A DNA stretch of 64,000 nucleotides from Alphaproteobacteria bacterium (GTDB taxonomy: Bacteria; Desulfobacterota; Binatia; UBA12015). The stretch is from contig JAFMJW010000002.1 in assembly GCA_017853315.1 (NCBI GenBank), positions 8,818 to 72,817 of the forward strand, read 5' to 3'. The notes under the pieces were generated by a model that was not told where the DNA came from, did not search any database, and saw only the letters and a list, made by a program, of their open reading frames with translations. Positions 36,345-63,024 of this stretch are shown here, piece by piece. Each line of letters opens with the position of its first letter. Position 1 is the first letter of the stretch. Position numbers and translations under genes: made by a program.

Positions 36345-37489
36345 CGGGGGGACCCTAGCAGAGGTCCGCCGTGCCGAGGAACCGATTTTCGAGGCGGTTC
36401 GACCGAAGCGGGCCGGGCCGGGTCTCGCGGATGCGCCGGGAGCCCGTCGAGCAGCCCGCGCTCGTCCAGGAAGCGATCGACCCGCGAGGCCAGCCAGCGG
36501 TTTCCCTCCGGCGCCAGGTGGATGTCGCGCTCGAAGAAGAGGCCGCGTCCGGCCGCGGGGTCGGCCGGCGGCCGGATCTCGCGGCCCGCGTCGAGGACCG
36601 CGACGCCCGCCTGCTCGAGGCGGCGGAGCAGGTCGGCCCACAGCGCGGCCGAGTCGCCCCGGAGATCCTCCTTGCACGGCATGACCACCGCGGCCCTGCG
36701 CGGGTCGCCGGGGATCGGCTCGCGCGCCAGTGCTGCGACGATCTTGTCGCGCTGCCACGCGGTCGTCCCGGCCCAGTCGAGGGGCGGCAGCTGGCCGAAG
36801 GGGTCACGGTGTCGCACCGAGCCGGCGAGCGCTCGCCAGAGGCGCAGCCCGCGCAGCAGGTCCGGCGTCGCGGCCTTCAGGCGCACCTGGAGCGCGATCC
36901 AGTTGCGCGACGGGTCGAGCGGCACGAGCCGTCCGTCGCGCAGGTCCCACAGCGGCACGTCCCAGTCCGAGGCGACGTCGGTGCAGTGCAGCCCGAAGAG
37001 CACGAGGTCGGGCGCGAGCCGCGCCGACCACTTCTGCGCCGCGCGAAATCCCTGGTCGAAGCCGTACCCGGGCACGCCCGCGTTCAGCACCTCGACGGGG
37101 CGTCCGTCCGCAGCGCGCCTCGCGGCGAGCACCGACTCCCAGGCCTGGTCGTCGTCGACGCCGGTGCCGAAGGTGAACGAGTCGCCCGTGGCGAGGATCC
37201 GCGGACGGTCCCGCGACTCGACGGGATCCCCGCCGCGCAGCCCGCTCGAGCCGACGTGCACGTGCTCGTCGAACTCGTCGGTGCTGCGGCTCACGTCGAT
37301 GCCGGGGCGAAGGCTCCAGACCGTGTCCGGGTCGGGCCGGCAGCAGGTGCGCGACCGCACCGCGTAGTGGATGCGGTCGTCGACGTCGGGGGCGAGGAAG
37401 CCGACGAGCCCCTCCGCGAGCGCGATCCCGACCGCGAGCGAGAGCAACGAGAGGAGGACGCGGGCGGCGCGCGAGCCGGACCTCGTCAC
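36341..37489 (-). CDS. Membrane-anchored SGNH/GDSL-type esterase or acyltransferase, paralog C
   Basis: GTG 37489 overlaps the upstream stop as GTGA. The anchor is VLLSLLSLAVGIALAEGLVGF. Motifs: ILATGDSFTFGTG, NAGVPGYG, FERDIHLAPEGNRWLASRV. Only the last 382 codons of tracked ORF 36341..41356 are real. Confidence 0.7.
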   Translation of the reverse strand: MTRSGSRAARVLLSLLSLAVGIALAEGLVGFLAPDVDDRIHYAVRSRTCCRPDPDTVWSLRPGIDVSRSTDEFDEHVHVGSSGLRGGDPVESRDRPRILATGDSFTFGTGVDDDQAWESVLAARRAADGRPVEVLNAGVPGYGFDQGFRAAQKWSARLAPDLVLFGLHCTDVASDWDVPLWDLRDGRLVPLDPSRNWIALQVRLKAATPDLLRGLRLWRALAGSVRHRDPFGQLPPLDWAGTTAWQRDKIVAALAREPIPGDPRRAAVVMPCKEDLRGDSAALWADLLRRLEQAGVAVLDAGREIRPPADPAAGRGLFFERDIHLAPEGNRWLASRVDRFLDERGLLDGLPAHPRDPARPASVEPPRKSVPRHGGPLLGSPR

Positions 37490-39690
37490 GGGCCGTCCAC
37501 GCCCCCCGCGGGCCCGTCGCCCGGCGGCGGCGCTTCGTCGCGGGAGTCGCGCACCGCCGCGTCGCGCGTGCCGACGTCCGTCGGCGACGGCGCCGCGTCG
37601 CCGGAAGCGTCGGCGGCCGGCACGACGGCCTCCGGCGAGGCGGCCGCCGACGGCATCGGTACCGGTGTCGGTGTCGCCTCGGCCGGGAAGCACTCGGCGG
37701 CGGTCGGCACCTGCCCGGCCCGGATCCGCACGAGCCGGTCGCGGAACGCGCGCGAACCCGCGAGTTCGGCCGGGCTCGCGCGTCCCTCGCGAAGTCGCCG
37801 CAGCTCGGCGGGGCCGCCGTCGTAGAGCGCCTCGATCTCCGCCGCCTCGCGGAGCGCTCCGTCCGCCCCCTCGGCCGACGGAGACGGCGCGGCTTCCTCG
37901 CCCGTCGAGCGAAGGCCGGGGCTCGCGAGCCGCGCCGCGATCTCCGCGCCGGCCCGCGCGTTGTAGCCGGGATCGCCGCGCAGCAGCGACGGGTCGAAGA
38001 AGCCGCGCCACACGCGCGGGTCGACGCCGAGCCAGCCCACGCCGCCCGCGGGCGAGGCGAACGACACGACCTGCTCCCCGCGCACGAGCCAGAAGCGCCA
38101 GCAGGAGCGCTGCCAGGCGAGAGCCGGGACGATCGTGGCCAGCGAGGGAGGCGAACCGGGCGACGATGCGGCGACCTCGGTGACCGCGACCGCGAGGCCG
38201 TCGCGCGCGGTCGCGAGGTAGGCGTCGGCGTCCGCAGCGGTCGGGACCCAGCGAGCGAGCCGCGCGAGCGGGTCGGGAGTCGGGGCCGCGGTCGGCTCGG
38301 ACGTCGGCTCCGTCACCCCGGGGTCGCCCGTTGCGCCGACGCCCGCGGGGGACGGCGCCGCCTCGGCCGGCGTCGGCTGCGGGCGCGGATCGGAGGCGCG
38401 CACCGCGGTCGGCGCGAGCGGCGCACCGAACCCGAAGAGCGTCCGCAGCCGGGGATCGACCTCGGTGCCCGCCGCGAGCGGGTCGCGCTCGACGTCGGGT
38501 GCGAGCAGCCGCGCGAGCGCGGCGAGCCCGTCGGGGGTCGCCTCGAAGGGCGAGTTCGCGCCGATCCCGGCGATCGCGCGGAGCGCGTCTCCCGCGGCGA
38601 GGAACGAGTCGTAGCGACCGCGCGCCTCGGGCGGGAGGTCCGCCGCCGCCCGTCGCACAGCGCCGGAGAGCGCGGGCCAGGTCCCGGCGAAGACGTCGCG
38701 CGCGGGCGCGGTCGGGTCCGCGGGCGCGGGTGCGGCGAGTTCCGCCGCCATCGCGTGCCGCTCCTCGAGCAGGACGGCGAACAGGGCCTCGCGCGCGGTG
38801 CGCGACGACGTCTCGTCCGCGGTGCTCTCCGCGACGAAGGTCGTGAACGCGTCGAGCCGCGCGAGCGAGTCGACGGAGACGGCCGCGCGCGCGGCGCCGT
38901 CCATGCCTTCGAAACGTGCGGCGGGAGCGGCCGCGTCGACGTCGAAGCGAATGCCGAGGTCGAGGCCGTCGGCAGCCACGGCGACCCGGTCGAAGCCGAT
39001 CGACTCGACCATGTGGCGGGCGACCTCCGCATCGTCGAGCGGCCCCGGCGCGAACTCGGGCAGGATCCGGTCGAGACCCGGCACGAGGTCGCCCGGCGAG
39101 AGCCGCAGGTCGGCGAAGCGAGGCTCGACGCGGTCGCGGAGCCATTCCCGCAGGGCGCCCTCGACCGGCTGCGCGCGCCCCGACGGGTCTTCGGCCGTCG
39201 CGGAGCGGACCTCGAACCCGAGCCGCCCCGACTCCCTCTCCGCGACCGGCTCGAGTCCGAGCGCGAAGGCGCCCGTCCAGTCGAACGGGAAGCTGCACCA
39301 CGAGCCGACCTGCCAGGACTTGCGGCCCTCCCCGCGCATGCGGACGACGACCGTCTCCCCGGAGACGCGGACCTCGGGATCGGAGAGGGTCAGGTGGTTG
39401 CACCCGGTCTCGTCGTCCCAGGCGCGTGCCGTGTCGGCGCCGTCGCGGAAGACGTGCTCGACGAGCACGCGGCGCAGGCGGGCGAGTTCGACGTGCGCGT
39501 CGAAGGGGATCCGTTCCGTCGCGGCGTGCGCGATCCCGAGGCCGCGGCCGGGGCCGGCGAGAGCGAGTGCGAGAGCCACGACGGCGGCGACGCTGCGCGC
39601 GCGCACGTTCGCGCGGAGCGCGGCGACGATCCGGGCCCGGGACGAACCCCGGGGCCCCGGGGCGCCATGCGCCGCTTCGCGAGCCTGCAT
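37486..39690 (-). CDS. Large secreted protein of unknown function with Pro/Ala-rich linkers and a possible degenerate SLT-like segment
   Basis: The start is proposed at ATG 39690, giving MQAREAAH...[24 protein letters not shown] as the signal peptide. The protein has 734 aa. See the findings for the SLT-like stretch. The start is uncertain. Confidence 0.55.
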
Positions 39691-39871
39691 GTCGAGAGCG
39701 TCCACGAGGCCTCCGAGGATAGCGGGCGCGGGCCGCGCTGGGGAGCGCGCGGCCGGGCGCCTCGCCCGGCCGCGGCCGCTTCGGCCGCCCGCAGCCGCTC
39801 GAGGCCGCAGGGCGCGGCTTGGCAGCCCGGGGCCGCCTGTCGTAACGAGGGCCACGGGGAGGGTGGCGCCG

Positions 39872-41893
39872 ATGATGCGATGGCTTGGATGGGGGGCGGT
39901 GGCGGCGATCGGCGCCACGGCGGTGGGCGTGCTCGCCCTCTCCCGGGGCGAGACGATCGACGCGACCTGGTTCGTGGTCGCGGCCGTCGCGACCTACGCG
40001 ATCGCCTACCGCTGGTACAGCGCGTTTCTCGCCGTGAAGGTCTTCGCCCTCGACCACGACAACGAGACCCCGGCCCATCGCCTGTCCGACGGACGCGACT
40101 ACGTGCCGACGAACCGCTGGGTCGTCTTCGGCCACCACTTCGCCGCGATCGCAGGCCCCGGCCCGCTGATCGGCCCGACGCTCGCCGCGCAGTTCGGCTA
40201 CCTGCCGGGCACGCTCTGGATCCTCTTCGGGGTCGTGCTCGGCGGGGCCGTGCAGGACTTCTGCGTGCTCTGCGGCAGCCTGCGCAGCGACGGCCGCTCG
40301 CTCGGGCAGATGGCGAAGGACGAGATCGGTCCGGTGGGCGGCTTCGCGGCGATGGTCGGCGTGTTCTCGATCATGGTGATCCTGATCGCGGTGCTGGCGC
40401 TCGTCGTCGTGAACGCGCTGAACCACAGCCCCTGGGGCACGGTCACCGTCGGGCTCACGATCCCGATCGCGATGGTCATGGGCGCGTGGATGCGCTGGAT
40501 CCGCCCGCACGACGTGACGGGCGGCACGATCCTGGGCCTCGTCCTGCTGGCCCTCGCACTCGTCGCCGGGCGGTGGGTCGGCGAGCACCCCGTCCTCGGG
40601 CCGATGTTCACGCTGCGCTCGACCACGCTCGCCTGGTCGATCATCGCCTACGGCTTCGCCGCCTCGGTCGTGCCGGTCTGGCTGCTGCTCGCGCCGCGCG
40701 ACTATCTCTCCACCTTCGTCAAGCTCGGCACGATCGCCCTGCTGGCGGTCGGGATCGTCGCGATCCGTCCCGAGATCCGGTTGCCCGCGCTCACACGCTT
40801 CACCGACGGCAACGGGCCGATCTTCGCGGGCACGATCTTCCCGTTCTGCTTCATCACGATCGCCTGCGGGGCGATCTCGGGCTTCCACTCGCTCATCTCG
40901 TCGGGCACGACGCCCAAGTTGCTCGGCGACGAGACCGACGCGCCGATGATCGGCTACGGCGCGATGCTGCTCGAGTCGTTCGTCGCGATCATGGCGATGA
41001 TCGCCGCGGCGGCGCTCGACCCGGGCGTCTACTTCGCGATCAACAGCCCGGCCGGCGCGGTCGGCGCCGACCCCGCGACGGCGGCCGCGACGATCAGCGG
41101 CTGGGGATTCCCGGTCACGCCCGAGTCGATGCAGGACCTCGCGACCGCGATCGGGGAGAGCACGCTCTTCGCGCGCACCGGCGGCGCCCCGAGCCTCGCG
41201 GTCGGCATGGCCGCGATCTTCGGCCGCTGGCTCGGCGGAGCGGCACTCGCCTTCTGGTACCACTTCGCGATCATGTTCGAGGCCCTGTTCATCCTGACGA
41301 CGCTGGACGCGGGCACCCGGGTGGGCCGCATGATGCTGCAGGACCTGCTCGGCCACTTCTGGGAGCCGCTCGGCCGAGGCGACTGGTGGCCGGCGGTCGT
41401 GGTCTCGAGCGCGATCGTCGTCTCGGCCTGGGGCTACTTCCTCTACCAGGGCGTGATCGACCCGCTCGGCGGCATCAACATCCTGTGGCCGCTGTTCGGC
41501 ATCGCGAACCAGCTGCTGGCCGCGATCGCGCTCGTCGTCGCGACGAGCTTCATCATCCGCAACGGCAAGTCGCGCTACGCGTGGACGACGCTCGTGCCGC
41601 TCGGCTGGCTGCTCGCGGTGACGATGACCGCGGGCTGGCTCAAGATCGCCTCGCCCGACCCGAAGCTGGGCTTCCTCTCGGGGGCCTCGAAGATCGCGGC
41701 CGGGCTCGCGGACGCCGCGCCCGAGAAGCTCGCGACGATGCGTGCGCAGGTGTTCAACCTGCGCCTCGACGCGGTCCTCACCGGCTGTTTCATGGCGCTC
41801 GTGCTGCTGATCCTGGCCGAAGCGGTGCGCGCCTGGCGGCGCGAACTCGCCCGGCTGCGCACGCCCCCGCCCCGCCTCGGCGCCGCCGCCTGA
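39872..41893 (+). CDS. cstA: Carbon starvation protein A (peptide/pyruvate transporter family)
   Basis: ATG 39872 lies in frame within ORF 38798..41893. Family segments: [61 protein letters not shown]. 673 aa and polytopic. Confidence 0.92.
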
Positions 41894-41900
41894 GCCGGTC

Positions 41901-42494
41901 TCAGCCGGCGCCGGCCAGCCGGGCGCCGATCGCGGCCGTGAACGCGGCGGCGGGCACCATCGCGATCGCCGTGCACCAGAGGAGCCTCGCGTAGGGCACG
42001 CCGAGTGCGCCGGCCGCGAGATTCACGAGCGAGCTCGAGACCGGGATCCAGTGCCCGACGATCAGGACCGCCGGGTGGCCGAGCGGCAGGCGCCGCAGCC
42101 AGGCCGGGAGCCGCTCGCTCTCGGCCGCGAGACCGAAGTCGCTTCCCGTGCGGCGCCCGATCGCGAACTCGATCGAAGCGGTGAGCATCCAGGTCGCCCA
42201 GCTCACGGCCGCGCCGGACGCGAATCCGAAGAACGTCCCGTTCAGGACGGCGCACGGCACGAAGTCGCTCGCCGGCGAGAGCGTCACGAGCAGCTGCAGC
42301 GGGAGCCATGCCGCGATCCACGCCGAGCCCCATCGGGCCTGCAACGCGGTCGGCCCGCCTTGCGCCCGAATCCAGAGGATCGCCGCTCCGCCCAGCAGGA
42401 GCGCGGTGACGAGGGCCGCGGGCCCCCGCCAGCGGGCCGCACCCGTCGCGACGCGGGCCGCGGTCGCGGCCGACGCGCCGGCCGGCGGGCTCAC
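41901..42494 (-). CDS. DedA/TVP38-TMEM64 (VTT-domain) family membrane protein
   Basis: GTG 42494 overlaps the regulator's stop as GTGA. The 197 aa contain 4-5 TM helices. The family segment is NGTFFGFASGAAVSWATWMLTASIEFAIGRRTG. Confidence 0.65.
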   Translation of the reverse strand: MSPPAGASAATAARVATGAARWRGPAALVTALLLGGAAILWIRAQGGPTALQARWGSAWIAAWLPLQLLVTLSPASDFVPCAVLNGTFFGFASGAAVSWATWMLTASIEFAIGRRTGSDFGLAAESERLPAWLRRLPLGHPAVLIVGHWIPVSSSLVNLAAGALGVPYARLLWCTAIAMVPAAAFTAAIGARLAGAG

Positions 42495-43183
42495 TTGCTC
42501 GCCGGCGCCCCGTTCGGCTGGCTGCGGACCCAGTCGGCGGCGTGACGCAGCAGCGAAGCCGCGTCCGCGAGGCCGAGCTTCCGCTTGATGTTCTCGCGGT
42601 GGCTCTCGATGGTCTTGAAGCTCACCCCGAGCTTCGTCGCGATCTTGCGGGTGCTGAGCCCACCCCCGAGCAGCGAGAAGACCTGGAGCTCGCGGTCCGA
42701 GAGGCTCGCCACGTCCCCGTGCTGGGAGTTGGTCGGCTGCTCGAGCAGCTTGTGCAGGACGAGCACCGCCATCTTGCGGGTGACGTAGAGCTCGCCCTTC
42801 AGGACCGTGCGGATCGCGGAGAGGACCTCCTCGGCCGCCTCCTCCTTCATGAGGTAGCCGCTGCCGCCCGCGCGCAGCACGCGCTCGGCGTAGACGGTCT
42901 CGTCGAACTGCGAGATCGCGAGCATCGGCATGTCCGGGTAGTCGGACTTGACGGCCTTGATCAGGTCGAGACCGTCCTCGTTCGCGAGCCGCATGTCGAC
43001 CAGGATCAGGTCCGGCTTGCTCTCGGGGATCGACTTCAGCGTCGACTTCAAGTCCTCGGCCTCGCCGCAGCAGAGCATGTCGTCCTGCCCGTCGATCAGC
43101 TGCCCGATCCCCTGCCGGAAGATCGGGTGGTCGTCGACGATCAGGATGCGGAACTTCTTGTCGGTCTGGTTCTCGCCGCTCAT
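42491..43183 (-). CDS. NarL/FixJ-type response regulator (REC + LuxR HTH)
   Basis: The product starts MSGENQTDKKFRILIVDDHPIF. The acceptor Asp lies in DLILVDMRL. The HTH is LSDRELQVFSLLGGGLSTRKIATKLGVSFKTIESHRENIKRKLG. The start overlaps the kinase stop as ATGA. Confidence 0.92.
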   Translation of the reverse strand: MSGENQTDKKFRILIVDDHPIFRQGIGQLIDGQDDMLCCGEAEDLKSTLKSIPESKPDLILVDMRLANEDGLDLIKAVKSDYPDMPMLAISQFDETVYAERVLRAGGSGYLMKEEAAEEVLSAIRTVLKGELYVTRKMAVLVLHKLLEQPTNSQHGDVASLSDRELQVFSLLGGGLSTRKIATKLGVSFKTIESHRENIKRKLGLADAASLLRHAADWVRSQPNGAPASK

Positions 43184-45180
43184 GACGGGTTCGCTCCTGC
43201 CCGCTCGATCTCGGGGGCTGCACTCGTGGCCGGGCACACGACGCGGATCTCCGTTCCGCGACCCGGCTCCGAGTCGATGTAGACGTCTCCGCCCACGGTG
43301 TGGGCCCGGTAGCGCATGATGCGCAGCCCCATCCCGGAGGACTCCGAGGACGGGGAGGAGTTCGTGGCGAAGGGCTCGGTGTGCCGGAAGCCCTTGCCGT
43401 CGTCCTTCACGACCAGCTGGACGGTCTCGGCATCGGCCTCGAGGCGGACGTCCACGTTCTTCGCCTGTCCGTGGCGGATCGCGTTGTGGATGGCCTCCTG
43501 CGCGATGCGGTAGGTCTCGCGCGCGACCGCGAGGTCGACGTCCGGCTCGGCCGGCCGCGAGGCGAAGTCGCAGCGGATCCCGTAGGACTCGACCGTGTCG
43601 GAGGCGAGCTTCTCGAGCGCCTTGGAGAGCCCGAAGCGCTCGACGTCGACCGGGTCGAGGCCGCGGGCGAGCCGGCGCACCTGGCTCATCGCGCCCGCGA
43701 GCAGCTTCACGATCTCCGCGGCCTGCCCGGCGAGCGGCCCGGAGTCGACCTTGCCGAGGCCCTGCTCGAGGGCCTTCGCCTTGAAGGCGACGCCGCCCAG
43801 GTAGGAGCCGAGTCCGTCGTGGAGGTCGTGTCCGATGCGGTGCTGCTCGTGGGCGGCCGCCTCGATGACGGCGGCCTCGAGCCGCTTGCGCTCGCTGATG
43901 TCGTGGAACCAGCCGAAGACGAATCCTTGCCCGGCGTGGTCCACGTAGTTGAGCGAGATCTCGACCGGGACGAGCCGCCCGTCGGCGGTGCGCACGCGCG
44001 TCTCGAAGACGCGGGGGCGTCCGTCGTGGCGGATGTCCTCGAACACCCGGTCGAAGCTGCTCTGCTCGAAGTCGGGCGCCACGTCGCCGACGTCCATGCC
44101 GATCAGCTGCCCGAGCGAGCGGCCGAGGAACGTGCACGCCGCGTCGTTCAGGAAGGTGAAGCGATAACCCTCGTCGGGGACGATCATGTAGAGCGGGTCC
44201 CAACTCACCTTCGCGCACTTGCGGAACAGCGCCGCGATCTCCTGGCTCTCCTTGCGCGCGGTGATGTCGGTCTCGATCGCCATGTAGTTGACGACCTCGC
44301 CGTTCTCGTCGTGGATCGGCTGGGCCTCGATCGCGAGCCAGTAGCGCCGCCCGTACTTGCTGTAGTTCACGACCTCGACGTTGAAGCCCTCGCCCTCGGC
44401 GAGTCGGCTCCGCATGTAGGCGACGGTCGTCGGGTCGGTATCGGGCCCCTGGAGCAGCCGGCCGGGGACGGTCCCCTTCACCTCCTCGAGCGTGTAGCCC
44501 GTGATCCGCTCGAAGCCGTCGTTCACCCACTCCACCCGGACCTGCGAGTCCGTCAGGATCACGGCGTTGTCGGTGCGCGACGCGATGAGCGCGAGCTTGC
44601 GCGCCTCCGCTTCCTGGGCCCGGATCTGCTCGTGGGCCGCCTGCAGGGACGAGTTGCGCTCGGCAAGGCTCTCGTTCGCCGTTCGCAGCTCCGAGCGCTG
44701 CTCGGTGAGCGTCGCGGCCATGCGCTTCAGGTCGTCGTAGGCGGCCTTCTGGGCCTGCACCAGGTGGACCAGGTCGACGATCGGGTCGTGGATCGCGAAG
44801 TCCGAGAGGAGGAGCCCGAGCTTCCCGATCTGCTCGGGGTCGGTGATCCAGGGCGAGCCCAGGAACAGCATCAGCTCCTGCCCGTCCTCCCAGAGCATCT
44901 GCCCGCGCAGCACGACGTCGGTTCCGAGCGGCGCGAGCAGGAAGAGATTGCGCTGGTTGCGGATGAAACCCGCGAGGTCGGCGACGCCCTCCGGCCGCAG
45001 GACGCGGAACACGTCCCCGAAGCCCTGCCCGGGCACGGCGGAAGGGAGCATCTTCGCGAGCGTCGACCCGACGCCGACGATGCGGAGATCGCGATCGAAC
45101 GCGACGTGGAAGGGAAAGACGCGATCGAGATCGCCCAGCGCCATCCGGGGCGGGGTCGAGCTTGCCGAGGCGACCTTCAT
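43180..45180 (-). CDS. Sensor histidine kinase: H-NOX-associated (HNOBA) domain, coiled coil, PAS, PAS, HisKA_3, HATPase
   Basis: ATG 45180 overlaps the H-NOX stop as ATGA. HNOBA segments are FPFHVAFDRDLRIVGVG, LRGQMLWEDGQELMLFLGSPWI and LSDFAIHDPIVDLVHLV. There are two PAS domains. The H-box is HEQHRIGHDLHDGLGSYL, with N-, G1- and G2-boxes EAIHNAIRHG, DDGKGF and GMGLRIM. 666 aa. Confidence 0.9.
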   Translation of the reverse strand: MKVASASSTPPRMALGDLDRVFPFHVAFDRDLRIVGVGSTLAKMLPSAVPGQGFGDVFRVLRPEGVADLAGFIRNQRNLFLLAPLGTDVVLRGQMLWEDGQELMLFLGSPWITDPEQIGKLGLLLSDFAIHDPIVDLVHLVQAQKAAYDDLKRMAATLTEQRSELRTANESLAERNSSLQAAHEQIRAQEAEARKLALIASRTDNAVILTDSQVRVEWVNDGFERITGYTLEEVKGTVPGRLLQGPDTDPTTVAYMRSRLAEGEGFNVEVVNYSKYGRRYWLAIEAQPIHDENGEVVNYMAIETDITARKESQEIAALFRKCAKVSWDPLYMIVPDEGYRFTFLNDAACTFLGRSLGQLIGMDVGDVAPDFEQSSFDRVFEDIRHDGRPRVFETRVRTADGRLVPVEISLNYVDHAGQGFVFGWFHDISERKRLEAAVIEAAAHEQHRIGHDLHDGLGSYLGGVAFKAKALEQGLGKVDSGPLAGQAAEIVKLLAGAMSQVRRLARGLDPVDVERFGLSKALEKLASDTVESYGIRCDFASRPAEPDVDLAVARETYRIAQEAIHNAIRHGQAKNVDVRLEADAETVQLVVKDDGKGFRHTEPFATNSSPSSESSGMGLRIMRYRAHTVGGDVYIDSEPGRGTEIRVVCPATSAAPEIERAGANPS

Positions 45181-45737
45181 CCCGCGGCCCCGGGACCCCA
45201 CGTGACGCGAAAGACGTCGTGGTCCGCGCCCTTCTCGCGATCCTGCACCTGTTCGACCCGCACCGGAGTGTCGAAGCGCTTTCCGAGCCCGATGACGAGC
45301 CCCTTCACCATCGGGCCGAGCCCCGGCCGCTCCGTGTGGTGGTGGAGCAGCATCGAGTTCTCGGTGACCTCGCCGCACTCGAAGCGAGGCGGCTTCAGGT
45401 TCGGGAAGATCATCCCGACCCGGGTGTGCATCTGGTTCAGGTTCATCAGGAACTCGGGCAGCGAGCCGCCCGCCGCGTCGAGGATCGCGCCGTAGCCGTC
45501 GGGGGCGGTGTGGAGGACCCAGTGGACCCCGAACGCCTCGAGGATGTCGGCCGCCGACGCACCCAGGACTTCGCTCGCCGCTCCGACCAGGGCGTAGGTC
45601 ATCTCGTCGGGATAGCCCTCGGTGCTGACGAAGACTTCGACGTCGATGCCGGCACGCTCCTTGATCCGTCGCCAGGTCTCGCCGCCGTGGTTCATGCGGA
45701 CGAGGTCCTCGACGGCCTTGTTCACCATGCCGTACAC
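45177..45737 (-). CDS. Stand-alone H-NOX (heme nitric oxide/oxygen binding) sensor protein
   Basis: Proposed GTG start at 45737 gives xYGMVNKAVEDLV, matching the family start MYG[FLM]VN. The alignment with sGC beta1 H-NOX is colinear (YPDEMTYALVGAASEVLG, PEFLMNLNQMH with the proximal His at residue 104, LLHHHTERPGL). 186 aa. An alternative ATG lies at 45728. Confidence 0.85.
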   Translation of the reverse strand: MYGMVNKAVEDLVRMNHGGETWRRIKERAGIDVEVFVSTEGYPDEMTYALVGAASEVLGASAADILEAFGVHWVLHTAPDGYGAILDAAGGSLPEFLMNLNQMHTRVGMIFPNLKPPRFECGEVTENSMLLHHHTERPGLGPMVKGLVIGLGKRFDTPVRVEQVQDREKGADHDVFRVTWGPGAAG

Positions 45738-45913
45738 GGGGCACCCCCATTCGTCGGCCGCAGCCCCTCGGGCCGAGGCGCCACACTGACCGACAGTATG
45801 TATCGGCAGGGTTCCGATTCGCGCAAGCATCGAGTCCGGGCCCCCGAGGCGCACCCCGGGGCGGCTGCGCCGGGCCTTCCGGCCGAACCCCGGGGCGAGG
45901 GCGACGGTCCGCA

Positions 45914-47581
45914 TTGACCCCGGCGGGGGGCTCGAGCAAGACAGCCGCGGTGCCCTTCCCCGACTTCGAGCCGACGATCCCGGAGCTGCTGCGCCGGGCC
46001 GCGACCGCCCACGGCCGCCGGACGCTGGTCGTGCTGGGCGACCGCCGCCTCGATTACGCCGAAGCGGAGAGCCGCTCCGCGAGCCTCGCCCGGGGACTCC
46101 TCCTGGCGGGAGCGGGCAAGGGGACCCACGTCGCGCTGCTGATGCCCAACGGTCCGGACTGGATCGTCGCCTTCCTCGCCGCCGCGCGGATCGGCGCCGT
46201 CGTCGTCCCGGTGAACACCTTCTTCCGCGCGCGCGAGCTCGGGTGGTTGCTGCGCCACTCGGACACGGCCTTCCTGCTCGCCACCCGCTCGTTCCGCGGC
46301 CACGACTACGCGGCCCGCCTGCTGGAGGTGGCGCCCGACCTCGCCGGGGCCGCGCCCGGCGGACTGCGGCCGAACGCGCTGCCGCAGCTGCGCTCGGTGT
46401 TCCTCGACGACGCCGAGGGGCTCGCGTGGGCCGGCTCGATCGACGAGCTCTCGCGCCTCGGCGACGCGGGCGCGGAGTCGGGACCCGACCGCCTGCGCGC
46501 TGCCGAGGACGACGTGACCCCGGCCGATCGCGCGGTCGTCATCTACACCTCGGGCAGCACCGCCGAGCCGCGCGGCGCGATCCACACCCAGGGCACGATC
46601 GTGCGCCACGCCTTCAACGTGAACGCGTGCGCCGGGCGAGGACTCGGGCCCGAGGACCGCGTCTGGTCGCCGATGCCCTTCTTCTGGGTCGGCGGGCTCG
46701 TCGTCTCGTTCCTCGGCGCGATGCACGCGGGCGCCTGCCTGCTGTGCGAGGAGGCGTTCGACGCCGAACGTACCCTCGACCTGCTCGAGCGCGAGCGGGC
46801 GACGCTCGCCGCGGGCTGGCCGCACTACGGCAAGGCGATGGCCGCGCACCCGAGCTTCGCGCGCCGCGACCTCTCCTCGCTGCGCGCGGGCATGGTCGAG
46901 ATCCTGCCGCCGGAGCGCAGGCCGGCCGACCCCTCGCTGCGCACGAACTCGCTCGGCATGACCGAGACCTGCGGCCCGCACACCTTCGGGCGCGAGGGCG
47001 ATCCCCCCGAGACGTTGCGCGGCAGCTTCGGCCGCGCGCTCGACGGCGTCGAGCACAAGGTGATCGACCCCGAGTCCGGGGAAACGCTCCCGCCCGGCGT
47101 CGAGGGCGAGATCTGCGTGCGCGGCTACAGCCTGATGCAGGGCTTCTGGAAGGTCGAGCGCGAGCGGACCTTCGAGCCCGACGGCTTCTACCGCACCGGC
47201 GACGGCGGACGAATCGACGCGGACGGCTTCCTCTGGTTCACCGGCCGACTCGGCGACATGATCAAGACCGCGGGCGCGAACGTCGCGCCGAGCGAGGTCG
47301 AGCAGGTGCTCGCGGGCTTCCCCGGGATCAAGGAGGCGCACGTGGTCGGGGTGCCCGACCCGGCGCGCGGCCAGAACGTCGCCGCGGCGGTCGTGCTCGA
47401 GCCGGGATGTTCCCTCGACGCGTCGTCGCTGCGGGAGAGGCTGCGGGGCGAGCTCGCGGCCTACAAGGTGCCGCGCGAGGTCGTCTTCCTCGAGTCGCGC
47501 GAACTCCCGTTCACCGACAGCGGGAAGATCGACAAGCGCCGACTGCGCGCGGTGCTCGTCGAGCGACTTTCGGCCGCCTGA
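45914..47581 (+). CDS. AMP-dependent acyl-CoA synthetase/ligase
   Basis: 555 aa. Motifs: VIYTSGSTAEPRGAIHTQ, GMTETCG, YRTGDGG and a C-terminal SGKIDKRRL. The tracked start is TTG 45914, with an alternative GTG at 45950. Confidence 0.8.
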   Translation: MTPAGGSSKTAAVPFPDFEPTIPELLRRAATAHGRRTLVVLGDRRLDYAEAESRSASLARGLLLAGAGKGTHVALLMPNGPDWIVAFLAAARIGAVVVPVNTFFRARELGWLLRHSDTAFLLATRSFRGHDYAARLLEVAPDLAGAAPGGLRPNALPQLRSVFLDDAEGLAWAGSIDELSRLGDAGAESGPDRLRAAEDDVTPADRAVVIYTSGSTAEPRGAIHTQGTIVRHAFNVNACAGRGLGPEDRVWSPMPFFWVGGLVVSFLGAMHAGACLLCEEAFDAERTLDLLERERATLAAGWPHYGKAMAAHPSFARRDLSSLRAGMVEILPPERRPADPSLRTNSLGMTETCGPHTFGREGDPPETLRGSFGRALDGVEHKVIDPESGETLPPGVEGEICVRGYSLMQGFWKVERERTFEPDGFYRTGDGGRIDADGFLWFTGRLGDMIKTAGANVAPSEVEQVLAGFPGIKEAHVVGVPDPARGQNVAAAVVLEPGCSLDASSLRERLRGELAAYKVPREVVFLESRELPFTDSGKIDKRRLRAVLVERLSAA

Positions 47582-47616
47582 GCGCCTCGCGGGCGCGCGC
47601 CGGGGCCGGGGCCGCG

Positions 47617-47654
47617 GCGCGGCCCGGCAACGGTGTTCCGCCCCCGGGCCGCGC
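47617..47654. terminator. Strong GC hairpin between convergent genes (candidate bidirectional terminator)
   Basis: A perfect 11-bp stem, GCGCGGCCCGG (47617-47627) with CCGGGCCGCGC (47644-47654), encloses a 16-nt loop. A nested 7-bp hairpin lies at 47609-47625. No T tract. Confidence 0.35.
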
Positions 47655-47663
47655 GCTCTCCGC

Positions 47664-48569
47664 TCAGGTGTTCGGCTTGTCGCCGCTCGCCGCCGCCTTG
47701 CGCATCGCCTCGAGGCGGTCGATCAGCCCCATCCGCTCGACACCGACGGTCGAGGGCAGGCGCTGCTCGATCTCCTCGGGCGTCCAGCGGCCGTCCTTGA
47801 ACATCGCGCGGACCTCGACCGGCTGGTTCCAGACCGCGATCTTGCCGCCCGAGCAGGTGTAGACCTGCCCGGTGATCGACCGCGCCTTGTCCGACAGCAG
47901 GAACACGACCATCGGCGCGATGTCCTCGGCCTCGCCGATCCCCTGGATCTCCATCGGCACGTTCGCGCTCATGCGCGTCTTCGCGACCGGCGCGATGCAG
48001 TTCGCGGTCACGCCGTAGCGATGCATGCCGGCCGCGGCGCTGCGCACGAGCGAGACGATGCCGCCCTTCGCGGACGCGTAGTTCGCCTGCGCGACCGAGC
48101 CGGCGAAGGCGCCGGAGGTGAAGCCGATCAGCGTGCCGCTCTTCTGCTCGCGCATGGCCGCCGCCGCCGCGCGGAACACCGTGAACGTGCCCTTCAAGTG
48201 GGTCGCGAGCACCGGGTCCCAGTCCTCCTCGCCCATGTTGAAGAGCATGCGCTCGCGCAGGATGCCGGCGACGCAGACCACGCCGTCGATGCGACCGAAG
48301 GCGTCGATCGCCGACTTCACGATGCTCGCCCCGCCGTCCATCGTCGCGACCGAGTTCGCGTTGGCGACGGCCTCGCCGCCCATCTTGCGGATCTCCTCGA
48401 CGACGGAGTTGGCGACGTCGCTGGTCGGCTCCTTGCCGTCCATCGAGACGCCGTAGTCGTTGACGACCACCTTCGCGCCCTCGGCGGCGCAGGCGAGCGC
48501 GACCGCCCGCCCGATGCCCCGGCCGGAGCCGGTCACGGCGATGGATTTGCCCTCGAGATACTTGCCCAC
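47664..48569 (-). CDS. Short-chain dehydrogenase/reductase with C-terminal extension
   Basis: GTG 48569 is preceded by AGGAGGAG. Motifs: IAVTGSGRGIGRAVA and YASAKGG (YxxxK). 301 aa. The tracked N-terminal 152 aa are spurious. Confidence 0.85.
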   Translation of the reverse strand: MGKYLEGKSIAVTGSGRGIGRAVALACAAEGAKVVVNDYGVSMDGKEPTSDVANSVVEEIRKMGGEAVANANSVATMDGGASIVKSAIDAFGRIDGVVCVAGILRERMLFNMGEEDWDPVLATHLKGTFTVFRAAAAAMREQKSGTLIGFTSGAFAGSVAQANYASAKGGIVSLVRSAAAGMHRYGVTANCIAPVAKTRMSANVPMEIQGIGEAEDIAPMVVFLLSDKARSITGQVYTCSGGKIAVWNQPVEVRAMFKDGRWTPEEIEQRLPSTVGVERMGLIDRLEAMRKAAASGDKPNT

Positions 48570-48673
48570 GCTTGCTCTCCTCCTGGGGTTCCGTCGTGCG
48601 GGTCGAGCGGCGCGGGAGGCGCCGCCGGCGGGACCATAGGACGCAGGGTCGGCCGCGACAAACGACGGCGCGG

Positions 48674-49069
48674 TCAGCGCCGCGGCCGGCGAACCGGCTC
48701 CCGCGGCGCGATCTCCGCGATCCGGGCGATCGCGACACGGCAGACGACGAGGTAGGGAAGGGCGATCGCCGGCACGCCGAAGCCCACCCGGCAGGCGTCC
48801 TCGCCGGTCGACTCGACCCGGTGGCCCGTCGCCGGAACTCCGGCGACCGACCACGACCACGACCGGCCGGGCTCGAAGCTCGTCACCTCGAACGGGAGGT
48901 CGAAGCCGAGCGCGGTCGTGACCAGCCCGCGAGTACCGTCGCCGAAGCGCTCCGAGAGGAGGCGTGCCGAACGCACCGAGGGGCCCCACTCGGGCCAGCG
49001 CTCGACGTCGACGAGGAGGTTCCACGCGACCTCGGCGGGAGCCGCGACGTCACCCCACGTCCACAGCAC
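48674..49069 (-). CDS. SRPBCC (START/polyketide cyclase-like) family protein
   Basis: 131 aa with the typical N-terminus VAAPAEVAWNLLVDVERWPEWGPSV. Confidence 0.65.
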   Translation of the reverse strand: MLWTWGDVAAPAEVAWNLLVDVERWPEWGPSVRSARLLSERFGDGTRGLVTTALGFDLPFEVTSFEPGRSWSWSVAGVPATGHRVESTGEDACRVGFGVPAIALPYLVVCRVAIARIAEIAPREPVRRPRR

Positions 49070-49168
49070 GCGCGCCTCTCGACCGGGGCGGCCGGATCGC
49101 CCGGCCGAAGCCGCGCGTCGACCCGGCGACGAAACGAAGAGGCGGCCCCGTCCGGGACCCGCGCCTCG

Positions 49169-49672
49169 TCAGGGAACGCGACGGATCGTCTCGCAGCTCG
49201 TGCTCGCGGTGTCCTCGAGCGTCTGGCCGCCGTTGCAGCGGTCGTCGCTGCCGCCACCGCCGAAGATTTCGTCGGCGCCGAAGCTGCCCTTCAGGACGTC
49301 GTTCTTCGGCCCGCCCTCGAGGTGGTCGTCGCCCTTGCCGCCGCGGATCAGGTCGGGGCCGTCGCCGCCGAACAGCCGATCGTGGCCGTTGCCGCCGAGG
49401 ATCGTGTCGGCGCCCTTGCCGCCGCAGATCGTGTCGTCCCCGCCGCCGCCCTTGATGTAGTCGTCGCCCTCCGCGCCGTAGATCACGTCCGCCTTGCTGG
49501 TGCCGACGATCGTGTCGTCGCCGGGGGTCCCGCAGATCGTCGGCTGCTTGCCGTCGCAGGTGGGCTCCGTGCCGTTGCACGGGTAGGGAGGCAGGTCGGC
49601 ACGGGCCGCCGTCGCGCAGGCGAGCAGGCCGGCTGCGGCGAGCAGAGCCGCGCGGGTGGGCCAGGGCTTCAT
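49169..49672 (-). CDS. Small secreted protein with hemolysin-type (RTX-like) calcium-binding repeats
   Basis: ATG 49672 is preceded by GGAGAA. The signal peptide is MKPWPTRAALLAAAGLLACATAARA. GGxGxD nonapeptide runs are present (GAEGDDYIKGGGGDDTICGGKGADTILGGNGHDRLFGGDGPDLIRGGKGDDHLEGG). Cys-containing caps flank the repeats. 167 aa. Confidence 0.75.
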   Translation of the reverse strand: MKPWPTRAALLAAAGLLACATAARADLPPYPCNGTEPTCDGKQPTICGTPGDDTIVGTSKADVIYGAEGDDYIKGGGGDDTICGGKGADTILGGNGHDRLFGGDGPDLIRGGKGDDHLEGGPKNDVLKGSFGADEIFGGGGSDDRCNGGQTLEDTASTSCETIRRVP

Positions 49673-49803
49673 GTCGTTCTCCATGTTCGACGGGACGGCG
49701 GCCCGAGGCTCCCGGGCCGGGTGTCGACCCCGCCGAGGAAACCATCCTCGCCAGCGGCGGTCAACCCGTGAAACTCGCCCGAAAAGCAGGCAGGCGCGGA
49801 GAA

Positions 49804-50610
49804 TCACTGCCAGCGCGTCATGAGCAGGGCCATTCCGACGCCGACCGCCACGATCGCCCGGCGCACCCAGCTCCGGGGCACGGCCCGGACCAGCGAGGCC
49901 CCGCCGAAGCCGCCGACCACCTGTCCGACGGTCATGATCGCGGCGACCGGCCAGTCGACCGCCCCGCCGCGGACGAACCAGGCGGCCGCGATGCCGTTGA
50001 TCACGGTCGCGAGACAGGTCCGCACCGCCATGCGCCGGTGGAGATCGCGCAGTCCCAGGATCCCGAGCGACGCGAGCATCATGATCCCGATGCCCGCCCC
50101 GAAGTAGCCGCCGTAGAGCGCGATCGGAAGCTGGAGAGCCGCGGCCCGCCACGGCGACCGCGGCGGCGGCTCGTCGACGCCGAGCGGCGACGGCGGCCGT
50201 GCTCCGTCGGAGAGGTGCACGAGGATCTCCTGGGCGGCGAACACTCCCGTCGCGAACAGGATGAGCGCGGGCACGAGCCGCACGAAGACCTTCTCCGGCG
50301 TCGCGAGCAGCAGGAACGCTCCGGCGAGGCCGCCCGCGAGCGACGGCAGCAGGAGCGCGCGCAACCAGGTGCGCGAGCGATCGATCTCGCCGCGGAACGG
50401 GACCATCGCCGCGATCGAGCCGGGAAAGATCGAGATCGTGTTGGTGCCGTTCGCGACGATCGGAGGCAGCCCCGCCCACACGAGCGCCGGAAAGGTGAGC
50501 AGCGAGCCGCCGCCGGCGAGCGCGTTGGTCGCACCGGCAGCGACGGCGACGAGAAAGAGCGCGACCGCGCGCGCCGCGGTCACGGACGCGACCCTTCCGA
50601 GGCGAGGCAC
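49804..50610 (-). CDS. TauE/SafE-family anion (sulfite-type) exporter
   Basis: 268 aa with 7-8 TM helices. Family segments: ATNALAGGGSLLTFPAL and GGYFGAGIGIMMLA. The exact start is uncertain. Confidence 0.8.
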   Translation of the reverse strand: MPRLGRVASVTAARAVALFLVAVAAGATNALAGGGSLLTFPALVWAGLPPIVANGTNTISIFPGSIAAMVPFRGEIDRSRTWLRALLLPSLAGGLAGAFLLLATPEKVFVRLVPALILFATGVFAAQEILVHLSDGARPPSPLGVDEPPPRSPWRAAALQLPIALYGGYFGAGIGIMMLASLGILGLRDLHRRMAVRTCLATVINGIAAAWFVRGGAVDWPVAAIMTVGQVVGGFGGASLVRAVPRSWVRRAIVAVGVGMALLMTRWQ

Positions 50611-50656
50611 GGCCGCGCCGCCGGCGGCAGGGCGCGAGGATCGTCTTCGCGAGCGC

Positions 50657-51121
50657 TCAGCGCACGAGCTCCCATACCGGCAGCACGACGCGCTCGGTGA
50701 GCGGCTTGAACACGACGCGCACGCGCTTGCCGATCGCGACCTCGTCGGGCGTGCAGCCGACCATGTAGCCGACCAGCCGCGGCCCCTCGTCGAGCTCGAC
50801 CACCACCATCGCGAGCGGCAGCAGATCCTTGAACGCAGGCAGGAAGGGCTCGCGGCCGAGCACCCAGGTGTAGATCGTGCCGGTGCCCTTCGCGTCGACC
50901 CACTCGAGGCGGCCCCCGCCCTTCCAGGTCGCGGGCTTGGGCGGCCAGTGGAAGGCGCCGGTCTCGCGGTCGCGCTGGACGCGGAGACGCCGCTCGCGGC
51001 AGCCGTCCCAGAAGGGACGGGTGACCGGGTGGTCGACGTCGGGCAGCGGGTAGTCGGGGTGCAGGTCGCCGATCGGCCGATCGGGCCCGCCGCCGCTCTC
51101 GGGACGCCTCACCTCGCTCAT
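50657..51121 (-). CDS. DUF35 OB-fold protein (thiolase partner)
   Basis: 154 aa. The family start is PFWDGCRERRLRVQRD. The rubredoxin-like Cys residues are largely replaced. The OB-fold segment is GTIYTWVLG...MVVVELDEGPRLVGYMV. It lies 8 nt downstream of the thiolase-like gene. Confidence 0.8.
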   Translation of the reverse strand: MSEVRRPESGGGPDRPIGDLHPDYPLPDVDHPVTRPFWDGCRERRLRVQRDRETGAFHWPPKPATWKGGGRLEWVDAKGTGTIYTWVLGREPFLPAFKDLLPLAMVVVELDEGPRLVGYMVGCTPDEVAIGKRVRVVFKPLTERVVLPVWELVR

Positions 51122-51128
51122 CGCGCCC

Positions 51129-52319
51129 TCACTCCCCGCGCACGATCATCGCGCTGGTCGCGACGCCCGACGCCCCGGTGACGAGCACGTTGCGGCAGCC
51201 GGGGACCTGCGCGGTCGAGTCGCCCCGCACCTGGCGCACGGCCTCGAGGATCAGGTTGAAGCCGTGCACGTAGGCCTCCGAGAGACCGCCGCCCGAGGTG
51301 AGCGTCGGCAGCTCGCCGCCGAGCTCGAGGCGTCCGCCCTCGGTGAAGGGCCCGCCCTCGCCGGGCTTGCAGAAGCCGTAGTCCTCGAGGCCCATGATCA
51401 CGAGCGGCGTGAACGCGTCGTAGATCTGTGCGCAGTCGATGTCGGCGGGCTTCATCTCGGCGCGCGACCAGAGCTGCTGCGCACACGGCACCGCGGTCGT
51501 CTGCAGGTCGGGCGTGTTGTAGTTCGCGAGGTGCACCGGGTTCGGGCCCGACGCCTGCGCGACCGAGTGCACGAGCACGGGCTTGCGGCGCAGGTCGCGC
51601 GCGCGCTCGACCGAGGTGACGACGCAGGCGAGCGCGCCGTCGGTCTCGAGGCAGCAGTCGTAGAGCGTGAGCGGGTCGCTCACCGCGCGGCCGGCGAGGT
51701 AGGTCGCCATGTCGAGCGGACGGCCGTGCATCATCGCGCCCGGGTTGCGATTCGCATGCTTGCGCGCGGCGATCGCGACGTTGCCGAGCTGCTCGCGCGT
51801 GGTCCCGAAGCGGTGCATGTGGCGCTGCGCCCACATGCCGATCACGTCGACGGGCCGGATGAGCCCCCACGGCACGTGCAGCGCCTTGTCGTCGGCGACG
51901 AGCTCGCGCTCCTGCGCCCAGGGGCGCGACGCCTTCGATCCGCGGTTGCGGGCGCGGTGGCAGACCACCACCTCGGCGAGGCCGGTCGCGATCGCGGCGG
52001 CCGCGTGCATGATCGTCGCGCAGGAGGCGCCGCCGCCGTAGGAGATCTTGTCCCACCAGCGCAGGTTCCGGACGCCGAGACCGCGGGCGATCGTCACCTC
52101 GTGGGTGTGCTCCATCTCGAACATCGACATGCCGTCGACGTCCTCGGTCTCGAGCCCGGCGTCCTCGACCGCGAGCCGGATCGCGTCGATCGCGGTGTCG
52201 GAGATCGGACGCCCGATGTCCTTCGCAAACGGCAGCTGCCCGATGCCGACGATCGCGACGCGGTCGCGGATGCGACGGAAGAGGTCGCGGTCGATCGCGT
52301 CGGCGGCCATGCGACGCAC
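51129..52319 (-). CDS. Thiolase-like (Ltp/SCP-x-related) protein
   Basis: 396 aa. Family segments: VAIVGIGQLPFAKD and GGGASCATIMHAAAAIATG. It has the gene pairing with DUF35 typical of this family. The start may instead be the Met three codons downstream (52310). Confidence 0.85.
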   Translation of the reverse strand: MRRMAADAIDRDLFRRIRDRVAIVGIGQLPFAKDIGRPISDTAIDAIRLAVEDAGLETEDVDGMSMFEMEHTHEVTIARGLGVRNLRWWDKISYGGGASCATIMHAAAAIATGLAEVVVCHRARNRGSKASRPWAQERELVADDKALHVPWGLIRPVDVIGMWAQRHMHRFGTTREQLGNVAIAARKHANRNPGAMMHGRPLDMATYLAGRAVSDPLTLYDCCLETDGALACVVTSVERARDLRRKPVLVHSVAQASGPNPVHLANYNTPDLQTTAVPCAQQLWSRAEMKPADIDCAQIYDAFTPLVIMGLEDYGFCKPGEGGPFTEGGRLELGGELPTLTSGGGLSEAYVHGFNLILEAVRQVRGDSTAQVPGCRNVLVTGASGVATSAMIVRGE

Positions 52320-52532
52320 CTAGCGGATCGGGGTCCGGGGCGGTAGGCGCCGGCGGCCCGGAGCCGGGGGACGGCGACCGTGACGTCTTCGAGGGTCTCG
52401 GTCCGACCCGGCGAGGGGCACCGCCGCCCGGTCTCGACCTCCGGGACCTCGAAGGGGCCGGAGACGGGGCGGTGCCAGCGCGGAGCGATTCGGGCATTGT
52501 ACCCGGGGGGAGCCGGCGGTATTCCTGCCAAA

Positions 52533-56327: not shown

Positions 56328-56412
56328 GTCCCGGGAGCGTCGGAACGGGGCCCCGCGCGCCCCACGCATTCAGGCATTGACCGGCCGCGTCCGGCCCGGG
56401 TAAAGCCGCGCG

Positions 56413-59220: not shown

Positions 59221-59268
59221 CGCCCGAAGGGCTCGCGTCGCGGCGAGCCTTCGCGTAGGACCGCGTCC

Positions 59269-60039: not shown

Positions 60040-60055
60040 CGGCCGGGCGCGCGCG

Positions 60056-61297: not shown

Positions 61298-61313
61298 GAA
61301 GGAGGACTTCGCC

Positions 61314-62126: not shown

Positions 62127-62243
62127 TCCCGCGCGGCGGTCGCGATCGCCGCGACCCGGGCGGACGCCCGCGGACCGGAGGACGGGCCGCGCGGGTGCGG
62201 CCCTCCCGAGCCGGGCCTCTCGGCGCCCGGCCGGGACGCAGCC

Positions 62244-62969: not shown

Positions 62970-63024
62970 GGCCGCGCCTCCCGGGCGACCGCGCGCGCGG
63001 CGCGGGAAACGTGCGTCGCCGGCG

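Follow-up and report, generated by a model that had tools for sequence, protein, structure and literature searches.

In animal soluble guanylate cyclase (sGC) beta1/alpha1, the sensory modules follow one another in a fixed order within one chain, namely, an H-NOX domain, a PAS-like H-NOX-associated domain (H-NOXA, Pfam HNOBA) and a coiled coil, and together they drive a class III cyclase. The HNOB and HNOBA domains were reportedly defined in 2003 by Iyer, Anantharaman and Aravind, and a split arrangement is said to have been recognized since (the 2003 work is reference 30 of PMC1592074). In Nostoc, a stand-alone H-NOX gene (Alr2278 or the Nostoc punctiforme H-NOX) lies directly upstream of the gene for a soluble kinase with an HNOBA domain and a signaling helix (N. 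punctiforme STHK, PDB 2P04/2P08). The HnoK-type kinases of other bacteria are not known to have an HNOBA domain, and their regulators are orphans that feed cyclic di-GMP or quorum-sensing circuits. In the H-NOX/HnoK systems of Shewanella, Vibrio and others, the gene for a stand-alone H-NOX likewise shares an operon with that for a soluble kinase, whose autophosphorylation is controlled in trans by H-NOX bound to nitric oxide (NO) (cf. PMC6759604). The functions of bacterial H-NOX proteins have been described as "not firmly established" (PMC10411614). Here, we describe an H-NOX operon in a 64-kb stretch of contig JAFMJW010000002.1 (the window), in which a stand-alone H-NOX, an HNOBA histidine kinase, a NarL-type response regulator and a small membrane protein with a VTT domain are encoded by four overlapping genes. 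We consider it likely (probability, about 0.7) that this is a translationally coupled operon in which the cytoplasmic sensory half of a split sGC is wired to a two-component output, with the VTT protein most simply read as its cargo or effector.

The operon occupies 41901-45737 of the minus strand, in coordinates of the window, and runs from H-NOX through the kinase and the regulator to the VTT gene. Its features, and the region upstream of it, are as follows.

45738 to 45949, no strand: divergent intergenic region of 212 bp that separates H-NOX from a plus-strand AMP-binding acyl-CoA ligase gene and contains a weak candidate promoter-like element (minus strand)
45177 to 45737, minus strand: stand-alone H-NOX gene, 186 amino acids, GTG start, stop TGA at 45179-45177 (Pfam HNOB)
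45428-45426, minus strand: proximal His104 of H-NOX, equivalent to sGC beta1 His105 by alignment
45341-45327, minus strand: H-x-T-x-R variant of the Y-x-S-x-R motif, H-NOX residues 133-137, reading H133-H-T135-E-R137
43180 to 45180, minus strand: soluble sensor histidine kinase, 666 amino acids, with HNOBA, S-helix, PAS, PAS, HisKA_3 and HATPase_c (Pfam, NCBIfam)
44806 to 45153, minus strand: H-NOXA (HNOBA) PAS-like core, kinase residues 10-125 (PDB 2P04, Pfam HNOBA)
44596 to 44805, minus strand: putative signaling-helix/coiled-coil linker, about residues 126-195 (C-terminal half of the Pfam HNOBA profile)
44239 to 44586, minus strand: PAS1, LOV-like (TIGR00229, residues 193-314; Chloroflexus LOV 6Y7U, E=1e-19)
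43870 to 44193, minus strand: PAS2, about residues 330-437 (second Pfam PAS stretch; NCBIfam partial matches over 336-437)
43228 to 43848, minus strand: kinase core, HisKA_3 at residues 445-511 and HATPase_c at residues 554-651 (Pfam)
42491 to 43183, minus strand: NarL/LuxR-type regulator, 230 amino acids, REC plus GerE helix-turn-helix, its start overlapping the kinase stop
41901 to 42494, minus strand: VTT-domain membrane protein, 197 amino acids, its GTG start overlapping the regulator stop (Pfam VTT_dom)

The three stop/start overlaps listed in an earlier note on this DNA can be read directly: ATGA at the H-NOX/kinase junction (45180-45177), ATGA at the kinase/regulator junction (43183-43180) and GTGA at the regulator/VTT junction (42494-42491). 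All four frames lie on one strand without intergenic gaps, and order and 4-nucleotide overlaps are kept in the orthologues, features that together mark a single operon. That the VTT protein is co-translated with the signaling proteins, which the note had stated outright, we infer from these overlapping codons. The Pfam assignments of all four proteins exceed the gathering scores, so that the hidden Markov model (HMM) searches proposed for HNOB, HNOBA, HisKA_3 and the VTT domain all returned matches above their cutoffs. Relative to the nearest orthologous locus (L001), the ratio of nonsynonymous to synonymous substitution rates (dN/dS) is lowest in the regulator (0.12) and highest in the kinase (0.24), with H-NOX and the VTT gene both at 0.18, and all four genes are thus under purifying selection in this closest pair (dN/dS, 0.12 to 0.24). 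A hydropathy scan found several hydrophobic segments in the VTT protein and none in H-NOX, the kinase or the regulator. A consensus promoter and terminator scan of 41500-46200 on both strands gave no candidate, inside the operon or around it, which is weak evidence at 72% G+C, the approximate composition of the window throughout. No RNA genes were found in the window with Rfam (gathering thresholds) or ARAGORN.

Orthologous loci, with kinases of 56 to 86% identity, were recovered as L001/L015, L002, L003-6, L007-8, L013-14, L095-96 and L098, with L097 being partial. All of them have H-NOX, kinase, regulator and VTT genes in this order, and the GTGA overlap between regulator and VTT gene is kept throughout. 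The conserved block terminates exactly past the VTT gene. In L002, L003 and L013, a CoA-transferase gene is interposed between the VTT gene and the neighboring CstA gene and leaves the four-gene block uninterrupted; such an insertion beside an intact four-gene overlap mildly favors a selected unit.

The kinase was compared with 5.8 billion proteins and the best 120 matches were examined for their architecture, while an HNOBA profile from a nine-sequence alignment was scanned against one genome per GTDB species, with 246 relatives confirmed and the best 80 loci kept. The total number of HNOBA loci compared was 90, of which 79 are more distant and lie outside the clade formed by the orthologues. 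The kinase search returned hundreds of sensor proteins with an N-terminal HNOBA domain, most of them hybrid kinases of the HisKA type, from Verrucomicrobia, Acidobacteria and others. An H-NOX open reading frame (ORF) stands immediately upstream of the HNOBA gene, on the same strand, in 82 of the 90 loci (cyanobacteria, Verrucomicrobia, Proteobacteria, Planctomycetes, Acidobacteria and Myxococcota), which is evidence that H-NOX and HNOBA are conserved partners. Given this frequency, the split sGC-like arrangement is the rule and no novelty. Known and widespread, then, is the H-NOX/HNOBA-kinase core, whereas the NarL-class output, the co-encoded VTT protein of the COG0398 type and an unusual heme-propionate motif distinguish this clade.

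In Nostoc, the gene order of H-NOX and kinase is the same as here in all loci examined. Unlike the window kinase, the Nostoc kinase has the architecture HNOBA-HisKA-HATPase (482 amino acids in L045), with no PAS domain and with HisKA instead of HisKA_3; no response regulator or VTT gene is adjacent to it, an FtsW/RodA/SpoVE gene being next instead; and the Nostoc H-NOX has the canonical Y-x-S-x-R motif. The gene that follows the pair is conserved in about 45 other Nostoc loci (e.g., L018-L087, near 11700-13000), where it encodes a multi-transmembrane protein of about 410 amino acids. In L045 (8397-12909), the sole Nostoc locus scanned with Pfam, this is the FtsW/RodA/SpoVE gene, about 240 nucleotides downstream on the same strand, so that in this other lineage the pair is followed by another membrane protein. 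A gene of the Haem_oxygenas_2 family is found upstream of the pair in L045. Compared with sGC, the order of the sensory modules is the same, but H-NOX is a separate protein in the window and the module drives a PAS-PAS-HisKA_3 kinase and, through it, a DNA-binding regulator.

The window H-NOX matches the HNOB profile (PF07700) from end to end (1-163 of 163; E=2.4e-46, 158 bits versus a cutoff of 25.5). Its relatives in the PDB place it on the Nostoc/sGC side of the family, with about 58% identity to the Alr2278 H-NOX of Nostoc sp. (2O09 and related entries; E of about 1e-62) and, as claimed in the earlier note, colinearity with sGC beta1 from human and insect (5MNW, 6JT0_B and 6PAS_B; E of about 1e-30), residues 1-178 corresponding to 1-181, whereas the Shewanella-type H-NOX (4U99/2KII) is far more distant (E of about 1e-6). 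Translation from GTG 45737 gives the family-typical N terminus M-Y-G-x-V-N, here M-Y-G-M-V-N, and the orthologues start at the same position with ATG (L013, L002 and L007), GTG (L001 and L015) or TTG (L003). Public gene calls place the start at ATG 45914, nearly abutting the divergent AMP-binding gene; given the conserved start position, this 245-amino-acid call is probably overextended.

We compared the heme-contacting residues in two sets, the first of 88 locus-derived H-NOX sequences (12 from the clade and 76 from outside it) and the second of the window protein and the 150 sequences that matched it best when 1.84 billion cluster representatives were searched exhaustively. The equivalent of His104 is invariant in the first set (88/88) and present in 148 of the 151 sequences of the second. 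The window protein departs from the canonical Y-x-S-x-R heme-propionate motif and keeps its Arg: H-x-T-x-R is found in all 12 clade sequences and Y-x-[ST]-x-R in all 76 others, the Arg being invariant in the 88. Among the 150 representatives, the Tyr of the motif is present in 144, and His occurs solely in the query and one aberrant sequence. Judged by sequence, H-x-T-x-R is a conservative variant, and we therefore keep the H-NOX family assignment but flag it.

The kinase begins with an H-NOXA domain, as the earlier note had proposed, and the peptide motifs quoted there are present in it. Pfam HNOBA (PF07701) matches with an E value of 6.4e-26 (91.6 bits versus a cutoff of 23.4), and residues 10-125 align to the H-NOXA domain of N. 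punctiforme STHK as solved by crystallography (2P04; E=1.7e-18), which is the structure that the note had mentioned as a Nostoc kinase domain used to model sGC. The best stretch of the HNOBA profile, kinase residues 89-176 against profile positions 114-197, reaches into the linker, for which a coiled-coil helical character would be expected from the family. The two PAS domains (PAS_9, E=7e-30) and the kinase core named in the note also hold above the Pfam cutoffs, with HisKA_3 at E=4.5e-09 (37.2 bits versus 24) and HATPase_c at E=3e-18 (66.7 bits versus 26.4); the H-box reads HDLHD, and the N, G1 and G2 boxes of HATPase_c are readable in the sequence. The similarity of PAS1 to the Chloroflexus LOV domain raised the question of a photoreceptor, which we rejected: GTVPGRLLQ replaces GRNCRFLQ, so that the photoactive Cys is gone, and two flavin contacts are lost relative to 6Y7U, the Asn of WN being Leu and the Gln of strand I-beta being Glu. 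The NCRFLQ motif is absent from all 90 HNOBA proteins. PAS1 thus reads as a degenerate LOV fold.

What sets the kinase apart is its combination of HNOBA with HisKA_3, which among the best 120 matches occurs solely in the ten closest (56 to 100% identity), and an adjacent NarL-type regulator was found solely at the clade loci. The pairing with a LuxR/NarL-type regulator asserted in the earlier note was borne out by the domains of the latter (Response_reg, E=6e-25; GerE, E=1e-14) and by the ATGA overlap. Its REC domain has the acidic pair DD17-18, the phosphoacceptor Asp63 and a Lys. In their HisKA_3 core and REC-GerE regulator, the two proteins resemble the NarX/NarL class, and they match the NCBIfam models for MctS/MctR, NarL, UhpB and LiaS; unlike that class, the sensor is predicted to be cytoplasmic and heme-protein dependent rather than periplasmic or transmembrane. 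Membership in the named equivalogs (MctS/MctR, NarX/NarL, UhpB/UhpA and LiaS/LiaR) was rejected, as scores were far below the equivalog cutoffs (MctR, at best 140.8 bits versus 300; MctS, 110 versus 700). Our literature search found no paper joining H-NOX to a NarL-type output.

The fourth gene encodes a real protein, as indicated by its dN/dS, the same as that of H-NOX, and by a confident AlphaFold model, which was built with 17 homologues and is all-helical (mean predicted local distance difference test score [pLDDT], 83; predicted template modeling score [pTM], 0.78). Its VTT domain (PF09335; E=4.9e-15, 56.5 bits versus a cutoff of 33.9) supports the DedA superfamily membership proposed in the earlier note, and profiles refine this to another branch than DedA itself. 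When aligned with hhalign, the family alignment matches E. coli YdjZ with 95.5% probability (E=1.6e-8) and YdjX with 87.7% (E=3.4e-6), compared to 0.7% for DedA (E=0.079), and we rejected the COG0586 flippase type of DedA on the basis of the last value. Matches of the single protein to YdjX and YdjZ in pairwise BLASTP were weak, and the branch was assigned from profiles instead. Several homologues are named "YdjX (TVP38/TMEM64 family)" by JGI, the Joint Genome Institute. By these comparisons with YdjZ, YdjX and DedA, the protein belongs to the YdjX/YdjZ-TVP38 (COG0398) branch. PDB searches with the sequence and with the predicted fold gave no relative (best Foldseek E value, 0.94). COG0398 proteins are putative phospholipid scramblases associated with aerobic metabolism and are distinct from the undecaprenyl-phosphate flippases of COG0586 (Todor et al. 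2023, PMC10127716). The protein shares its small, multi-helix form with E. coli YdjX/YdjZ and eukaryotic TVP38/TMEM41B/VMP1, but is shorter, at 197 amino acids, and its branch is the only one seen here fused into a signaling operon. The family is tight and small, with about 20 word-index matches and 18 metagenome loci.

In E. coli K-12, the two COG0398 relatives are clustered with a 4Fe-4S ferredoxin-type protein and an AhpD-like protein in ydjX-ydjY-ydjZ-ynjA (L115, 7402-10064). This redox-flavored context echoes the link between a gas or redox sensor and the VTT protein in the window.

From these features, we propose the following mechanism. H-NOX would bind heme b through His104 and, given the apolar character of the distal pocket in the Nostoc/sGC type, would bind NO (or carbon monoxide [CO]) rather than O2. 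It may then dock in trans on the HNOBA domain and signaling helix of a dimeric kinase, mimicking the contacts that H-NOX, PAS domain and coiled coil make within sGC, and ligand binding would alter autophosphorylation of the HisKA_3 domain. In bacterial H-NOX/kinase pairs that have been studied, NO inhibits the kinase. The phosphoryl group would pass to Asp63 of the regulator and change transcription, and the two PAS domains may supply extra inputs. A likely target of the regulator is the shared divergent promoter region at 45738-45949, in which case the operon would be autoregulated. The candidate promoter-like element in this region, on the minus strand, consists of TTGCGC (45826-45821) and ATACAT (45803-45798) separated by 17 nucleotides and falls below the threshold of the consensus scan; it is identical in L001 and L015, reads TTGCGT-N17-ATAACT in L013 and L002, and is not clear in L003 and L007. 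The latter two, the most divergent loci, have an ORF of 53 to 63 amino acids without a Pfam match between the AMP-binding gene and H-NOX (L003, 1956-2147; L007, 1949-2110), which has no evident counterpart in the window. As the sole nonsignaling product of what is probably a single mRNA, the VTT protein would in the simplest reading be the first cargo or effector of the pathway, a putative lipid-scramblase-type protein.

Several observations weigh against this reading, and some of them concern the VTT gene. The neighborhood survey of HNOBA kinases suggested in the earlier note came out in two ways: a VTT gene lies beside every orthologous kinase, but none was found within 6 kb of the 79 distant HNOBA loci with an HMM of the clade VTT proteins (E<=1), and a Pfam check of ten membrane-like ORFs not of the FtsW/RodA type within 6 kb of distant HNOBA kinases gave no VTT domain (0 of 10). 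The majority of the membrane-like ORFs in these neighborhoods represent the conserved Nostoc gene of about 410 amino acids. Homologues of the VTT protein with at least 66% identity are always inside the operon, whereas relatives at 35 to 53% identity (P0134, P0139 and 16 metagenome loci) are solitary, with unrelated neighbors and no upstream regulator, suggesting that a VTT gene that had stood alone entered the operon a single time, in the clade ancestor. Moreover, the flanking AMP-binding gene and CstA are likewise syntenic across the clade, and conservation of the VTT gene alone is therefore no proof of a functional link, which may be historical instead. Two further negatives concern the pathway at large, as no NO-metabolism gene is found in the 64-kb window, and when the DNA preceding H-NOX in five orthologous loci was searched for a conserved inverted repeat that could serve as an operator, the palindromes obtained were GC-rich and nonconserved; we propose no binding site for the regulator. 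Finally, the clade-wide exchange of Tyr for His in the heme-propionate motif could alter heme affinity or chemistry.

The VTT observations can be read to mean that the gene is a passenger, which the clade ancestor acquired at the operon's 3' end and which is cotranscribed without having a role in the H-NOX pathway or being a specific target of it, with signaling otherwise as described. Restriction of the link to one clade, the solitary state of more distant relatives in varied contexts and the synteny of both neighbors, which makes conserved order expected from relatedness alone, all fit this view. Against it, the GTGA overlap has been kept in all orthologues down to 56% kinase identity while the CoA-transferase insertion rearranged the downstream DNA, the VTT gene evolves at a rate similar to that of H-NOX and the kinase, and the consensus scan gave no separate promoter-like site for it (weak evidence in high-GC DNA). 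We regard capture as a passenger as possible, though short of probable, and the VTT protein as effector or cargo and as passenger are both live alternatives.

In a third view, the VTT protein would be an accessory of the sensor in a three-component system, either as a membrane tether or modulator of H-NOX and kinase or as a reporter of the membrane or lipid state via the PAS domains. It is the only membrane protein among the four, translational coupling would fix its stoichiometry with the signaling proteins, and neither PAS domain has an assigned ligand. However, we know of no DedA-superfamily protein that acts as a kinase accessory, and most HNOBA kinases operate without such a partner. The top-ranked papers on DedA proteins and two-component operons describe no such accessory, and our literature search found no paper connecting H-NOX with DedA proteins. 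Altogether, a role as sensor accessory appears very unlikely. A genuine partnership of the COG0398-type protein with the H-NOX pathway in either form, that is, as an NO- or redox-controlled effector acting in lipid scrambling or asymmetry or as a membrane subunit feeding back on the kinase, is a rather unlikely proposition.

The unusual heme-propionate motif bears on the signal itself. Instead of NO, the H-NOX might report the heme redox state or oxidants, CO or O2, or, in the extreme case, bind heme poorly and sense heme availability. Consistent with this, H-x-T-x-R is specific to the clade and has next to no parallel in the 150 closest cluster representatives, and NO-metabolism genes are missing nearby. 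The proximal His and the Arg of the motif are nevertheless retained, the His can still hydrogen-bond a heme propionate, the Thr is a conservative replacement for Ser, and the Nostoc H-NOX, with which it shares 58% identity, binds NO and CO and is not known to bind O2. Oxidative activation is described for another bacterial H-NOX (PMC12329717), and the association of COG0398 proteins with aerobic metabolism (PMC10127716) would also suit a signal other than NO. On balance, we find such a signal doubtful, and we retain an NO-responsive sensor coupled to a two-component output, with the VTT protein as its putative cargo or effector, as our preferred reading.

On its other side, the operon meets the CstA gene (plus strand) in a convergent arrangement, the stops of CstA and the VTT gene being 7 nucleotides apart (41893-41901). 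Given this gap and the absence of a terminator-like structure, the two transcripts probably overlap. CstA relatives at 76 to 78% identity are mostly labeled Candidatus Binatia or Deltaproteobacteria. Although the metagenome-assembled genomes with orthologous loci are labeled inconsistently (Alphaproteobacteria, Deltaproteobacteria or just bacterium), the CstA labels agree with the gene content and hint at an uncultivated lineage that is probably Binatia-like. Beyond CstA, a minus-strand ORF of 810 amino acids (37486-39918) has no Pfam match and lies where the G+C content peaks locally, at 0.776 (38-40 kb); in L013 and L014, the same position after CstA is taken by a gene for about 720 amino acids, also without a Pfam match, followed by a GDSL-lipase gene. 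A plus-strand ORF of 1,326 amino acids (52347-56327) with B_lectin (E=7e-24) and disintegrin-like (E=6e-9) matches is conserved in L001 and L095, where it again adjoins this gene block. Gene content elsewhere in the window (1-35000 and 47000-64000) is dominated by acyl-CoA and lipid metabolism, with three AMP-binding ligases, thiolases, a thioesterase, short-chain dehydrogenases/reductases (SDRs), GDSL/SGNH hydrolases, DUF1329 and a HAD-acyltransferase fusion.

These results do not overturn the current understanding and should not surprise specialists, but they provide a useful handle on what HNOBA kinases control. Structural work on the human NO receptor widely relies on bacterial H-NOX proteins of the Nostoc/sGC-like type as substitutes, yet this type has no signaling output assigned to it, since the Nostoc kinases are orphans. 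The operon of this clade is self-contained, comprising sensor, HNOBA kinase, cognate DNA-binding regulator and putative cargo gene, and the output of an HNOBA kinase therefore becomes directly testable. It also places a COG0398 DedA-superfamily protein, a type without an established function in bacteria, under a plausible gas or redox sensor, and the natural Tyr-to-His exchange in the heme-propionate motif is a ready variant for heme-binding studies of the sGC-type pocket. Should the VTT protein be a genuine partner of the pathway, a defined physiological output could for the first time be assigned to a bacterial HNOBA kinase, and a regulatory input to a bacterial DedA protein of the TVP38/YdjX type; the H-x-T-x-R pocket would then be adapted to a ligand or redox signal that matters for membrane or aerobic physiology.

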